From positions 2,470-66,469 of the forward strand of contig CAZJDL010000002.1 of assembly GCA_964544755.1 (NCBI GenBank): DNA of 64,000 nt, read 5' to 3'. Positions within the stretch are counted from its first letter, which is position 1. The number at the start of each line of letters is the position of its first letter. Below are positions 50,784 to 52,772 of this stretch, piece by piece. Position numbers and translations under genes: made by a program. The DNA comes from an uncultured Pseudomonadales bacterium. Lineage in GTDB: Bacteria; Pseudomonadota; Gammaproteobacteria; Pseudomonadales; JAUIET01. A model generated the notes under the pieces. That model was given only the letters and a program-made list of their open reading frames with translations, had not been told where the DNA came from and did not search any database.

Positions 50784-52772
50784 ATGGCGACTAAAGCAAA
50801 GCGAATTTCACAGCAAGCGTTAATGGAAAAATTGCGAGATATTGATATAAGCGATGAAGAGCTGGCTCAATATTTTATTGAAGATGAATCATCGACAGAT
50901 GCCTTCAACCCAACGGTAGCTCTTAATCCAAAATCAGTTGAAGATGATGGGCTAGAAGGGGCTTTTGTCCTTAATTCATTTAATTCCATCTGCCGATGGC
51001 GACGTAACCGTAAATACAAAAGACGCATAAAAAATTGGAATGGCGTACGCGTAGTTGCTGAAGGTGACTCTTGGTTTCAGTATCCGTTAATCCTTAAAGA
51101 TACTATTGATCAGCTAATTGATCTGGATAATTTTCAATACGCAATCTTAGGCTTAAGTGAAGCAGGCGACCTTCTGTCGAATATTGTTCGTGAAGATGAA
51201 ATTAGCGAAGCAATTGAAGAGCAAGACCCTGATGTATTTCTAATCAGTGCTGGCGGTAACGATATGGTTGGCAATGGCCGTCTCGCTACCATGGTTCATG
51301 CCTTTGACGAGGATCGAGAAGCAATAAATTATCCACATGAAAAATTTACCGAATTTCTAGATGGACTTGAACACTTGTACCGCAAACTGTTCAATCGTAT
51401 TTTAAGCAACAAACCTCATTTAAAAATCATTTTTCATGGCTATGACAATGTTATCCCTCAAAATGGGTCATGGCTTGGTAAACCATTAGCAAAACAAAAA
51501 ATTACTAACAAAACCCTGCAACATAAAATCCTGATAGAAATAATTAAGCAACTTAACGACCGTCTGAAAGAGATTGCCAAAGATTATCCTGGGTCTGTTT
51601 ATCACGTTGATTGCCGCGACTCGGTGGGTACTAAATCAAAATGGCATGACGAACTTCACCCAAAAAATGAAGGCTATTTTAATGTCGCCAAACTGTTCGA
51701 TGAGACTATTAAACTAGCGCTTAATGAAAAACTACCCTCCTCGCCCATCTCTGTTAATGTCCTCATCGAAACACATGAAGGCATAAAAGAGACTCCCGTT
51801 AAACTGGCTAAACTTAAACAACTGGACAATGCCAGCTTTTTAAACCTGGTGTTCGAACGAGCCAAGCGCACCTTGTCTTTGGGCGACAAAATAACGATAC
51901 CTAAAAATGAGTATGAACGTCGTCAATTAGAGTCCGATATTTCCGATCACTTTGAAAAAGTGCATAAAGAAGCAAACTTTCTGAAAAGTATCTTCCTTGA
52001 ACTTGGCGTCAAACGAGCGCAATCTGTATGCCGTATTGTGACAGATATGAGTTATGGCAGTGGCTCTTTAGTAGCTTCTCGAAATTTTGTGATGACTAAT
52101 AATCATGTCATTCCTGATTTTGCCACGGCACAAGCAAGCGTTGCAGAATTCGATTATGACGAAGATAATATTCTTTACACTGTCAACCTGGATCCAGATG
52201 CCTTTTTTATGACTAGCAAAGATCTGGACTTCACCATTATAGCTTGTGACCCCTCACCATTGCCCCTGGATATTGAAGCGATTCCACTACTGTCCAACCC
52301 TATGACGATCACTCGTAAAGAACGTGTAAATATTATTCAACACCCAAAAGGACGTAGCAAAGAGCTATCTTTGCACGATAATAAAGTAACCTATATCTAC
52401 AACAAAGTAATTCGTTATACTGCGGATACAGAGCCCGGCTCTTCCGGCTCACCTGTGTTTAATGATGATTGGGAACTAGTCGCTCTGCATCACGCTGGCT
52501 GGTCTGAAGTGGAGGGAGAAGCCACCAATGAAGGCATTAGAATTTCAGCTATTGTTGAATATTTAGTTGCTCAACAGCAAAATAATGAGTCCGACGATCA
52601 TCTCGGAATGCTAATTAGCAGCATTACGCAAGCTGAAGCTACTAGCAGTGCTATTAGTCATCATCCAACAGCTCAAAAAATCGTGCAGCCCTCTACCAAA
52701 AAACAATCCCATAAATCACTCATATTGAATGTGGAAGGTGATTTGCAGGAACTTACAATTAGGCTCAACTAA
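50784..52772 (+). CDS. SGNH/GDSL hydrolase - trypsin-like (S1, PF13365-like) serine protease fusion protein, cytoplasmic
   Basis: 662 aa, with AAGGAG 6 nt before the ATG. SGNH blocks: VVAEGDSWF (Ser96), ISAGGNDM (157-160), WHDELHP (Asp289/His292). Protease triad: MTNNHVI (His441), DLDFTIIAC (Asp482), TEPGSSGSPVFN (Ser554), followed by ALHHAG. No signal peptide or TM segment. Low GC. Confidence 0.85.
   Translation: MATKAKRISQQALMEKLRDIDISDEELAQYFIEDESSTDAFNPTVALNPKSVEDDGLEGAFVLNSFNSICRWRRNRKYKRRIKNWNGVRVVAEGDSWFQYPLILKDTIDQLIDLDNFQYAILGLSEAGDLLSNIVREDEISEAIEEQDPDVFLISAGGNDMVGNGRLATMVHAFDEDREAINYPHEKFTEFLDGLEHLYRKLFNRILSNKPHLKIIFHGYDNVIPQNGSWLGKPLAKQKITNKTLQHKILIEIIKQLNDRLKEIAKDYPGSVYHVDCRDSVGTKSKWHDELHPKNEGYFNVAKLFDETIKLALNEKLPSSPISVNVLIETHEGIKETPVKLAKLKQLDNASFLNLVFERAKRTLSLGDKITIPKNEYERRQLESDISDHFEKVHKEANFLKSIFLELGVKRAQSVCRIVTDMSYGSGSLVASRNFVMTNNHVIPDFATAQASVAEFDYDEDNILYTVNLDPDAFFMTSKDLDFTIIACDPSPLPLDIEAIPLLSNPMTITRKERVNIIQHPKGRSKELSLHDNKVTYIYNKVIRYTADTEPGSSGSPVFNDDWELVALHHAGWSEVEGEATNEGIRISAIVEYLVAQQQNNESDDHLGMLISSITQAEATSSAISHHPTAQKIVQPSTKKQSHKSLILNVEGDLQELTIRLN

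Follow-up and report, generated by a model that had tools for sequence, protein, structure and literature searches.

[quoted passage not shown] An AGGAG ribosome-binding site lies 6 nt ahead of the start codon (50773..50777, forward strand); the gene and this site had both been called in an initial annotation. GGAG was the sole upstream feature conserved across the six homologous loci that we compared. An operator-like palindrome that had also been proposed, TGTCA-ATCA-TGACA (TGTCAATCATGACA), is present at 50678..50691 but is not conserved upstream of homologs and is probably of no significance. No other plausible open reading frame was found in the islet, and none of the Rfam RNA families matched there. 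The interval from the stop codon to the downstream transposase remnant has no open reading frame of at least 40 amino acids, and the islet has no immunity-like open reading frame.

The gene has a GC content of 0.403, versus 0.559 for its flanks, and a third-position GC content of 0.345, versus 0.716 for the neighboring LysR gene and 0.586 for the DUF6607 gene. The segment bounded by inverted repeats measures 2,305 bp and is 39% GC in a host of 56% GC. Relatives at 83% identity reside in genomes of about 40% GC, where the GC content of the gene equals that of its flanks. Given that the 16-point drop is confined to the repeat-bounded cassette and that such close relatives have GC-matched settings elsewhere, horizontal acquisition, recent in this host, is clear, and the low-GC islet described at the outset holds up.

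The repeats, at 50584..50608 (forward) and 52864..52888 (reverse), are complementary at 24 of 25 positions, the first 22 nt perfectly so, and their motif matches twice in the window where 0.04 matches would be expected by chance. Each lies beside a piece of a RAYT/Y1 transposase. On the left, 24 bp from the repeat, starts a reverse-strand remnant (50560 to 50456) corresponding to amino acids 1 to 35 of an intact 175-amino-acid RAYT, with 74% identity to the intact RAYTs of two other loci (L113 and L117). On the right, the repeat is 158 bp from the stop of a second reverse-strand remnant (53237 to 53046), which covers amino acids 108 to 170 of the same protein, including the natural stop, at 56 to 63% identity to intact RAYTs. 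Codons 36 to 107, with the HUH motif, are missing. In metagenomes, the REP family to which the 22-bp repeats belong occurs as hairpin-forming doublets and flanking intact 175-amino-acid RAYT genes. The repeats are REP elements that belong to a RAYT system resident in the host, whose GC content they share. Transposase debris and perfect 22-bp inverted repeats, both noted initially, are thus real, but the repeats are not the ends of an insertion sequence.

An insertion sequence or mobile insertion cassette was considered and rejected: inverted repeats are present, no flanking direct repeat was found, and the motif is REP/RAYT associated. The element shares its REP family with REPtrons and REPINs (REP sequences with a RAYT Y1 transposase), and both pieces of debris map to the associated RAYT. 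It differs from them in that two REPs point outward around a 2.3-kb cargo gene and the RAYT is split in the permuted order N-terminal part, REP, cargo, REP, C-terminal part, with codons 36 to 107 lost, so it is neither a REPIN nor a REPtron. REP/RAYT systems are usually thought to move only themselves; the finding of a cargo gene in an inside-out RAYT element, between REPs that face outward, raises the question of whether they can capture or receive genes.

Two catalytic domains on one polypeptide

The SGNH/GDSL hydrolase domain (amino acids 86 to 312; 51039..51719, forward) carries the motifs GDSWF at 94 to 98 (S96), GGND at 157 to 160, and DELHP at 289 to 293 (D289/H292), where they had initially been placed. 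Pfam matched Lipase_GDSL_2 (PF13472) to amino acids 134 to 298 (E = 8e-9; 36.7 bits, cutoff 32.9) and Lipase_GDSL (PF00657) at 25.5 bits (cutoff 23.6). In a 79-sequence alignment, S96, G157, G158, N159, D160, E290, and H292 do not vary, and D289 is kept in at least 90% of the sequences. Blocks I (S96), II (G128), III (N159), and V (D289/H292) are present and are invariant or at least 90% conserved in sets of 79 and 100 sequences; HGYD at 218 to 221 and W287 are invariant motifs specific to this SGNH clade. AlphaFold2 (AF2) modeled the N-terminal half with a pLDDT of 89.5. The model and Foldseek searches of the PDB both gave the three-layer α/β/α flavodoxin-like fold of the SGNH superfamily, with matches to the GDSL esterases 7e16 and 8ik1 (E = 2e-8), TesA, and PAF-AH (target-normalized TM-scores of 0.6 to 0.73). 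A PDB sequence search with the family profile returned no match for this half. Generic GDSL/SGNH esterases (EstL5, Alr1529, TesA, PAF-AH α, and sialate O-acetylesterase) share the fold and catalytic blocks I, II, III, and V, but identity to them is 12 to 18%, and they differ from this clade in its extra 85-amino-acid N-terminal extension and its invariant HGYD and W287. That extension (amino acids 1 to 85; 50784..51038, forward) is predicted to form two short helices, short strands, and a long helix at 60 to 82 (AF2 pLDDT, 72 to 95). According to a segment HMM, it always accompanies this SGNH clade, even in permuted proteins in which the protease comes first.

The protease domain (amino acids 415 to 600; 52026..52583, forward) matches Trypsin_2 (PF13365) over amino acids 425 to 568 (E = 1e-20; 75 bits, cutoff 27.6). 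The chymotrypsin-fold triad was found as first described, in TNNHV at 438 to 442 (H441), DLDFTIIA at 480 to 487 (D482), and EPGSSGSPVF at 550 to 559 (S554), and all three residues are invariant in the 79-sequence alignment. The ordered His-Asp-Ser triad, the GxSGS(P) motif, and a double β-barrel place it in family S1 of clan PA. Foldseek agreed, matching FAM111A, Esp, V8, Spl, and HtrA in the PDB (E = 1e-10 to 1e-8; target-normalized TM-scores of 0.6 to 0.76), so that HMM and structure searches, which had been suggested as a check, support both folds. The whole protein was modeled with a pLDDT of 87.8 and a pTM of 0.85. By sequence profile and structure, the closest matches of amino acids 415 to 600 are the staphylococcal S1B proteases (V8/GluV8, Esp, SplA to SplF, and the exfoliative toxins) and human FAM111A. 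Identity to these is only 17 to 20%, they have no SGNH fusion, and the staphylococcal enzymes have signal peptides and are secreted. Many of these proteases start out as zymogens that N-terminal processing activates, and FAM111A acts inside the cell and cleaves itself. PADLOC returned a weak match to RT-Protease_XI that covers the protease part only (E = 5e-9; model positions 334 to 506). Membership in DRT/UG RT-Protease class XI was rejected, as the match is to the protease only and Pfam detected no reverse transcriptase (RT) domain.

The linker (amino acids 313 to 414; 51720..52025, forward) is modeled as a β-hairpin at 323 to 340 plus three helices, with a low-confidence loop at 394 to 396. 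Its HMM is retained in linker-trypsin-EEP proteins without SGNH, and the linker thus belongs to the protease module. The C-terminal tail (amino acids 601 to 662; 52584..52769, forward) is predicted to be disordered at residues 619 to 643 and ends in a conserved motif of about 18 residues, LILNVEGDLQELTIRLN; in longer relatives, an EEP domain occupies its position. Extension, linker, and tail had no match in Pfam, NCBIfam, or PADLOC.

As had been proposed, the protein appears to be cytoplasmic. Its maximum Kyte-Doolittle value over a 19-residue window is 1.14, all but one of 120 homologs stay below about 1.6, and N termini are hydrophilic across 80 loci; on this hydropathy check alone, no signal peptide, transmembrane segment, or Sec/Tat-type signal was found in the 120 homologs.

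A modular family and its genomic settings

Comparison of family sequences indicates that the protein joins two independent modules, [85-amino-acid N-terminal extension + SGNH] and [100-amino-acid linker + trypsin], because 80 genome loci show them separate, permuted, and in partial combinations: extension-SGNH alone, linker-trypsin-EEP without SGNH, permuted trypsin-extension-SGNH, and SGNH-trypsin-Endonuclease_NS. Loci L029, L030, L082, and L094 and a Rhizobium johnstonii plasmid encode the two modules in separate genes next to each other, and in L017 they are divided only by an in-frame stop codon. Used alone as a query against 1.84 billion representatives, extension plus SGNH recovered 1,883 representative clusters with a threshold of E ≤ 1e-3; the number fell to 1,151 with E ≤ 1e-10 and to 337 with E ≤ 1e-30. 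The notion of a rare fusion was dropped; the domain pair is one of the architectures seen in a large family built from modules.

Among 100 multidomain representatives of the SGNH clade, each of at least 420 amino acids, about three-quarters contain an endopeptidase, drawn from four unrelated folds: Trypsin_2 (40), Peptidase_C14 (30), CHAT (3), C11 (2), and C25, C50, S8, and M10 (1 each). The same sample contains Peptidase_M15 (15), Endonuclease_NS (8), Amidase_2/3 (7), EEP (5), TPR-S (5), and FHA (3), and relatives also carry Endonuclease I and PG_binding domains. The SGNH-trypsin pair was found neither in the literature searched nor in PADLOC-DB 2.0, apart from the RT-Protease_XI match, in agreement with the initial view that it belongs to no named defense system.

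The caspase-type (C14) fusions, together with the frequent endolysin-type domains, bring to mind an enzyme of regulated autolysis or stress death that has nothing to do with phages, one that would serve developmental or nutrient-stress lysis or the release of DNA or public goods, as has been proposed for bacterial metacaspases. Asplund-Samuelsson et al. (2012; PMC3501461) noted one such protein, Amidase_2-caspase-GDSL from Chitinophaga, described it as a "weapon" that combines lipase, amidase, and protease, and connected architectures of this kind with autolysis. The Chitinophaga pinensis protein, with its metacaspase, belongs to the same SGNH clade, and its architecture recurs in L070, L076, and L092; it differs in having a caspase where ours has a trypsin, and it was reported as a one-off curiosity, for which no family or mechanism was defined. 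In most genomes, the gene is GC ameliorated and sits among housekeeping genes, which would also suit an autolytic role. We nevertheless regard this explanation as distinctly unlikely, given a patchy distribution that crosses phyla at 60% identity or more, the clearly recent transfer into this host, and the lack of any conserved regulatory partner across loci.

The gene stands alone: it was never found in a conserved operon, and across loci no conserved neighbor or recurrent downstream family emerged. An MBL-like gene downstream of the L014 homolog was rejected as a partner, since it encodes a lipoprotein unrelated to the partner gene in L005. Enrichment in defense islands or prophages, which the initial annotation had named as a test of its proposal, was not seen: the 131 neighboring open reading frames of 12 trypsin-type loci gave only generic kinase and ABC matches in PADLOC, the Pfam contexts of these loci likewise carried no defense-island signal, 50,697 phage genomes contained no copies, prophage-like contigs had none either, and IMG/VR yielded remote SGNH matches only. 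GC content equals that of the flanks in most hosts; often, therefore, the gene has been resident for a long time and is not a fast-moving gene of islands.

This absence of defense context would fit an ordinary degradative or housekeeping bifunctional enzyme (e.g., one that turns over acyl esters and peptides) that plays no part in conflict, as would the structures closest to the SGNH half, which are those of generic esterases whose specificity is broad or unknown. We consider that very improbable: metabolic enzymes do not typically have their domains shuffled with nuclease, caspase, CHAT, and endolysin-type domains, no conserved operon surrounds the gene, and it was acquired horizontally as a single-gene cassette.

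The Rhodohalobacter homolog has gp19-tube, baseplate-V, PAAR, and CIS tape-measure genes at a distance of 0.85 kb, and many hosts are marine or symbiotic bacteria. These settings are consistent with an exported multihydrolase toxin aimed at competing bacteria or a eukaryotic host and delivered by a signal-independent route (T6SS, an extracellular contractile injection system, T1SS, or lysis), in which the conserved N-terminal extension would act as a tag for trafficking and the protease would either be toxic in its own right or let the protein process itself after delivery. Lipase, wall hydrolase, and DNase are classic T6SS effector activities, and the M15, Amidase_2/3, PG_binding, Endonuclease I, and Endonuclease_NS domains of relatives normally act outside the cytoplasm. 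Export is nonetheless a rather unlikely explanation in our judgment. Secretion-gene linkage was seen in 1 of the 12 trypsin-type loci; Pfam detected no PAAR, Rhs, MIX, or LXG-type domain in the protein and no N-terminal trafficking domain of polymorphic or T6SS-type toxins; and neither an immunity-like gene in the islet nor a conserved downstream gene was found. Members also occur in Gram-positive bacteria and cyanobacteria, and export does not account for the consistent pairing of SGNH with an endopeptidase, whose fold is interchangeable, or with CHAT, TPR-S, or FHA.

A putative protease-gated effector

We tentatively favor, at a little under an even chance, the interpretation that the product of this gene is a cytoplasmic pro-enzyme, complete in itself, that combines a protease with a latent effector, the effector being [85-amino-acid extension + SGNH esterase/lipase] and the gatekeeper [100-amino-acid linker + S1B-like trypsin protease]. 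The protein would be made in an inactive form and stay so until a trigger (candidates are infection, envelope or DNA damage, and forced oligomerization) activated the protease, which would then cut a flexible segment, either in cis or in trans, possibly the N-terminal extension, the loop at 394 to 396, or the disordered tail at 619 to 643. The cut would free an active SGNH hydrolase to attack membrane lipids or another essential ester, leading to growth arrest or death, whether as abortive infection or as another form of programmed death. In longer relatives, the protease module may also free nucleases (EEP, Endonuclease_NS, and Endonuclease I) or endolysin-type wall hydrolases (M15 and Amidase_2/3), so that membrane, DNA, and wall would be taken apart from within.

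Several observations point to protease gating. Across evolution, SGNH is coupled to proteases of four folds, with split-gene versions; both domains pass Pfam cutoffs with invariant catalytic residues, a confident AF2 model, and agreement from Foldseek; the modules are independent, the extension-SGNH unit alone reaching more than a thousand clusters; the homologs have hydrophilic N termini and no export signals; and there is no conserved neighbor and no second islet open reading frame that could serve as an immunity gene. The protease half also resembles that of RT-Protease_XI, and DRT systems are among the carriers of trypsin-MBL modules (PMC12799240, PMC12642450). Other observations weaken it: gene GC matches the flanks in most hosts, and the Endonuclease I and wall hydrolases of relatives normally work outside the cytoplasm. 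A defense role in particular is weakened by the lack of a sensor domain, of defense-island context in 12 loci, and of phage-encoded copies. The stand-alone conflict module suggested initially gains support from the evolutionary coupling of the SGNH domain to proteases of unrelated folds and to nuclease, endolysin-type, CHAT, TPR-S, and FHA domains; an association with defense islands or phages was not seen.

Protease-gated latent effector modules were published in 2025, when effectors unmasked by proteolysis were described and further effector classes were predicted (PMC12799240, PMC12642450). Those of anti-phage systems include trypsin-MBL nuclease (with HamM, Avs, Lamassu, or DRT), the caspase-nuclease "canu," and protease with α/β-hydrolase, Pepco, or EACC1 (PMC12799240; PMC12642450; bioRxiv 10.1101/2025.09.03.673762). 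As in those modules, a trypsin- or caspase-like protease of interchangeable fold is co-inherited here with a degradative effector (in about three-quarters of the 100 representatives), fused and split arrangements both occur, and export signals are absent. The present protein differs in its effector, an SGNH hydrolase, which appears in none of these three reports and is not an MBL, α/β-hydrolase, Pepco, or EACC1 domain; in carrying effector and protease on one polypeptide; and in having no STAND, Hachiman, RT, Argonaute, or other sensor attached or adjacent. It also has no defense-island context and no full-length match to a PADLOC-DB 2.0 system model, the comparison being at the level of sequences and models.

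We further speculate, as a more doubtful extension of protease gating, that extension-SGNH could represent a class of protease-unleashed death effector not described before, the fifth such class, numbering over 1,000 sequence clusters. The 662-amino-acid protein would then be its minimal form, on a single polypeptide and with no need of a separate sensor; a phage protease or other phage protein that acts on the disordered tail or linker, for example, could trigger it directly, and its relatives would be all-in-one executioners of membrane, DNA, and wall that lyse the cell from within. If the mechanism holds, it would add an esterase/lipase-type effector to protease-gated immunity and cell death, beyond nucleases and pore formers, and would provide a very small, single-gene, sensorless case in which to study protease triggering. 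The family-wide association of SGNH with proteases that replace one another (trypsin, caspase, CHAT, subtilase, or zincin) and with endolysin-type and nuclease domains is a concrete comparative-genomic prediction.

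Catalytic domains of the window protein

The 662-amino-acid ORF (50784 to 52772, + strand) has AGGAG 6 nt 5′ of its ATG. The fusion of an SGNH hydrolase and a trypsin-like protease reported in the initial annotation was confirmed, and every catalytic motif that it listed lies at the residue number assigned there. Pfam placed Lipase_GDSL_2 and Lipase_GDSL at residues 98 to 304, both above their curated cutoffs, and Trypsin_2 at residues 425 to 568 (E = 1e-20, above the curated cutoff). In an alignment of 79 full-length homologues, no substitution occurs at the SGNH residues S96, G157, G158, N159, D160, and H292 or in the protease triad H441/D482/S554, and D289 is conserved at a level of at least 90%. 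An AlphaFold2 model of the whole protein, built with this alignment, was confident (pLDDT 87.8, pTM 0.85), and residues 1 to 330 modeled separately reached a pLDDT of 89.5. Foldseek searches of the PDB matched the C-terminal half to FAM111A, Esp/V8/Spl, exfoliative toxins, and HtrA, and the separate N-terminal model to generic GDSL esterases, TesA, PAF-AH, and sialate O-acetylesterases, at identities (12 to 18%) from which the SGNH substrate cannot be read. Together, the Pfam assignments, invariant residues, confident models, and structural matches indicate that the predicted SGNH and S1-type protease folds are real.

Outside the canonical SGNH blocks, HGYD (residues 218 to 221, nt 51435 to 51446) and W287 (nt 51642 to 51644) are invariant throughout the SGNH clade, caspase fusions included, and may mark a clade-specific substrate or regulatory site.

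Coupling of SGNH hydrolases to proteases

A search of 5.8 billion proteins recovered about 80 full-length relatives that share the architecture of the window protein, mostly from marine Gammaproteobacteria and including a Rhodohalobacter (Bacteroidota-related) at 62% identity, as well as about 30 longer relatives with an extra C-terminal EEP domain. Segment HMMs (N-extension, residues 1 to 85; SGNH, 86 to 312; linker, 313 to 414; trypsin, 415 to 600; and tail) were run on the ORFs of 80 genome loci. The N-extension always accompanies SGNH, including in proteins permuted to the order Tryp-Nterm-SGNH, and the linker always accompanies the protease, even in linker-Tryp-EEP proteins without SGNH, from which we infer that the window protein consists of two modules, N-extension plus SGNH and linker plus trypsin. 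Other architectures found with Pfam were Nterm-SGNH with caspase (C14), with or without Peptidase_M15; Nterm-SGNH with zincins; SGNH-Tryp-Endonuclease_NS; and Amidase_2-caspase-SGNH. The protease module is elsewhere joined to EEP, Endonuclease_NS, or Endonuclease I.

Coupling was tested with residues 1 to 312 as the only query, which excludes protease bias. Against 1.84 billion representative proteins there were 1,883 matches at E ≤ 1e-3, 1,151 at E ≤ 1e-10, and 337 at E ≤ 1e-30. Fifty of the best 150 matches were shorter than 420 amino acids, most being the Nterm-SGNH module alone; Pfam domains were counted in the 100 that were not. Roughly three-quarters of these longer representatives carry an endopeptidase, with four unrelated folds represented. 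The counts were 40 for Trypsin_2, 30 for Peptidase_C14 (caspase), 3 for CHAT, 2 for Peptidase_C11, and 1 each for Peptidase_C25, Peptidase_C50, Peptidase_S8 (subtilase), and Peptidase_M10 (zincin), along with Peptidase_M15 (15), Endonuclease_NS (8), Amidase_2/3 (7), EEP (5), TPR-S (5), and FHA (3). The two modules are neighboring separate genes in L029, L030, L082, and L094, and on a Rhizobium johnstonii plasmid a 335-amino-acid Nterm-SGNH gene is followed, after 43 bp, by a Tryp-Endonuclease_NS gene. Because the protease folds swap beside the same partner and the genes fuse and split, this comparative evidence strongly suggests that the SGNH domain and the protease work together. The family is large, undescribed, and modular, and what defines it is the coupling of an SGNH hydrolase with a protease.

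In an Arenicella homologue (L017, 3050 to 5023; 63% identity), an in-frame stop within the linker leaves separate Nterm-SGNH and linker-Tryp-tail ORFs and could reflect pseudogenization, an error in sequencing, or a naturally split gene.

M15, Amidase_2, and Amidase_3 are catalytic types of phage endolysins. Regulated autolysis independent of phage, which we consider rather improbable, would agree with the fusions to caspase and to endolysin-type domains; what was remarked in 2012 about one Chitinophaga protein, an Amidase_2-caspase-GDSL fusion (PMC3501461), is also consistent with it.

Acquisition of the islet and its flanking repeats

The 662-amino-acid gene has a GC content of 0.403 and a GC3 of 0.345; its flanks average 0.559 GC, and GC3 in the LysR gene is 0.716. 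Low-GC DNA extends over exactly 2,305 bp, inverted repeats included (50584 to 52888, GC 0.392), and the DNA directly outside the repeats is host-like (0.50 to 0.53). Nothing plausible in the way of other genes or known RNAs was found within the islet. In most genomes carrying relatives, the gene and its flanks agree in GC; the window copy is an outlier, with the GC of 83%-identical copies in genomes of ~40% GC, which indicates that its transfer into the host was recent. A housekeeping bifunctional enzyme would hardly be expected from such cassette-like acquisition and from the domain shuffling, and we give that explanation very little weight. In the closest relative of the host carrying the DUF6607/hemin-uptake operon (L104, 73% identity), a Tn3-family transposase (8280 to 11336) lies downstream of DUF6607 at the position of the islet, so this position is a variable insertion spot.

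We rejected the 22-bp perfect repeats as IS ends; they belong to a REP family tied to a 175-amino-acid RAYT (Y1 transposase). Their 18-mer core was recovered from 65 metagenome contigs, many sharing a longer consensus, and 20 contigs have at least 2 copies of the repeat, several with REPIN-like doublets 45 to 66 bp apart. In intact REPtrons (L113, 1929 to 2673; L117, 8990 to 9737; L146, 704 to 1447), the motif flanks the RAYT gene, one copy preceding the start by ~27 bp and the other following the end by ~170 bp. The two window fragments correspond to parts of this one RAYT (residues 1 to 35 and 108 to 170); codons 36 to 107, HUH motif included, are missing. The remnants, each retaining its own REP at native spacing, occupy 50456 to 50608 and 52864 to 53237 in the order RAYT-N, REP(+), cassette, REP(−), RAYT-C, a circular permutation around the cargo gene. 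Neither simple insertion nor inversion explains this order. A circle of REPtron plus cassette opened inside RAYT would produce it, as equally would two tandem REPtrons eroded from outside.

RAYT proximity across the family is near chance. In L005 (9943 to 14413), inverted copies of a 20-mer, GATATGGAAAGACCTGACCC, enclose a 77% homologue and a 371-amino-acid multi-TM gene downstream of it; the 20-mer also flanks a RAYT gene next to them and a truncated duplicate of RAYT. This REP(+)-cargo-REP(−)-RAYT layout is that of the window, from a REP unrelated to the window's.

Cellular location, genomic context, and possible function

A hydropathy check detected no hydrophobic N terminus or TM-grade segment in the window protein or 120 homologues, and N termini in ORFs from the 80 loci are hydrophilic (e.g., MAKITVE). 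In P0037, P0069, P0072, P0077, and P0079, a Lys/Arg/Ala/Thr-rich extension of 20 to 45 residues, possibly a tail that binds membranes or nucleic acids, precedes the conserved N-terminal motif; the window protein has MATKAKR alone at this place. Membrane-anchored variants are suggested by a lone, strongly hydrophobic segment in a few Nterm-SGNH relatives (L030, residue ~456 of 499; L063, residue ~445 of 486; L069; and L087); the segment is C-terminal in two and separates SGNH from a zincin domain in the other two.

In L012 (5047 to 8232), the Rhodohalobacter sulfatireducens homologue is followed, at a distance of 0.85 kb, by gp19-tube, baseplate-V/VgrG-like, PAAR, and contractile-injection-system tape-measure genes; no other linkage of a secretion type was seen. 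Export as a toxin against bacteria or a host would fit this single adjacency and the repertoire of lipase, wall hydrolases, and DNases, but it is unlikely because immunity genes, trafficking domains, and any recurring link to secretion genes are absent, and it leaves the obligatory protease unexplained.

The trypsin-type gene has no conserved neighbor across the loci compared; genes ~30 bp downstream in two homologues encode mutually unrelated products, a multi-TM protein and an MBL-like lipoprotein. PADLOC gave only generic kinase and ABC-type matches among 131 neighboring ORFs of 12 loci, and its sole match to the window protein was the protease part of RT-Protease_XI. No copies occurred among 50,697 phage genomes, IMG/VR yielded remote SGNH matches only, and 113 plasmid matches were mainly to rhizobial megaplasmids with other architectures.

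In anti-phage systems described in 2025, trypsin-like or caspase-like proteases unmask latent effectors by site-specific cleavage, and further effector classes are predicted; SGNH/GDSL is mentioned in none of these reports (PMC12799240, PMC12642450, bioRxiv 10.1101/2025.09.03.673762). Membership of the window protein in any named system was rejected after several defining features of such systems were sought and not found. The same logic fits the window family with SGNH as the effector, and by this analogy we tentatively favor a cytoplasmic, protease-gated pro-enzyme, for which we infer a cleavage step, trigger, substrate, and phenotype. Accessory endolysin-type domains, non-specific nucleases, and the lipase-type enzyme would then take apart the membrane, wall, and DNA of the cell from inside. 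Weaknesses of the gated reading are that no sensor domain was found in the window protein, that defense-island context is lacking, and that the accessory domains normally act outside the cytoplasm. The protein nevertheless fits best within the protease-gated effector theme. The earlier proposal of a single-gene conflict module is supported in part, favored by SGNH-protease coupling and recent transfer and weakened by the missing sensor and island context.

In the SGNH-caspase subfamily, a conserved gene of ~650 to 730 amino acids lies immediately upstream in 16 loci (L031, 7782 to 9974, and 15 others), and the pair may form a two-gene system. Pfam gave no match to this gene in L031; on Sinorhizobium meliloti pSymA (L096, 5009 to 6961), it is annotated as a C1 family peptidase, and genes of the SUMF1/FGE family and of TIGR02594 are nearby. 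On the R. johnstonii plasmid (L097), a SIR2-family gene and then an ATP-binding-protein gene (11675 to 14658) lie ~1.3 kb downstream of the split SGNH/Tryp-Endonuclease_NS pair, with M15 peptidase and peptidoglycan-binding proteins encoded upstream, and these surroundings could be a conflict-gene cluster.
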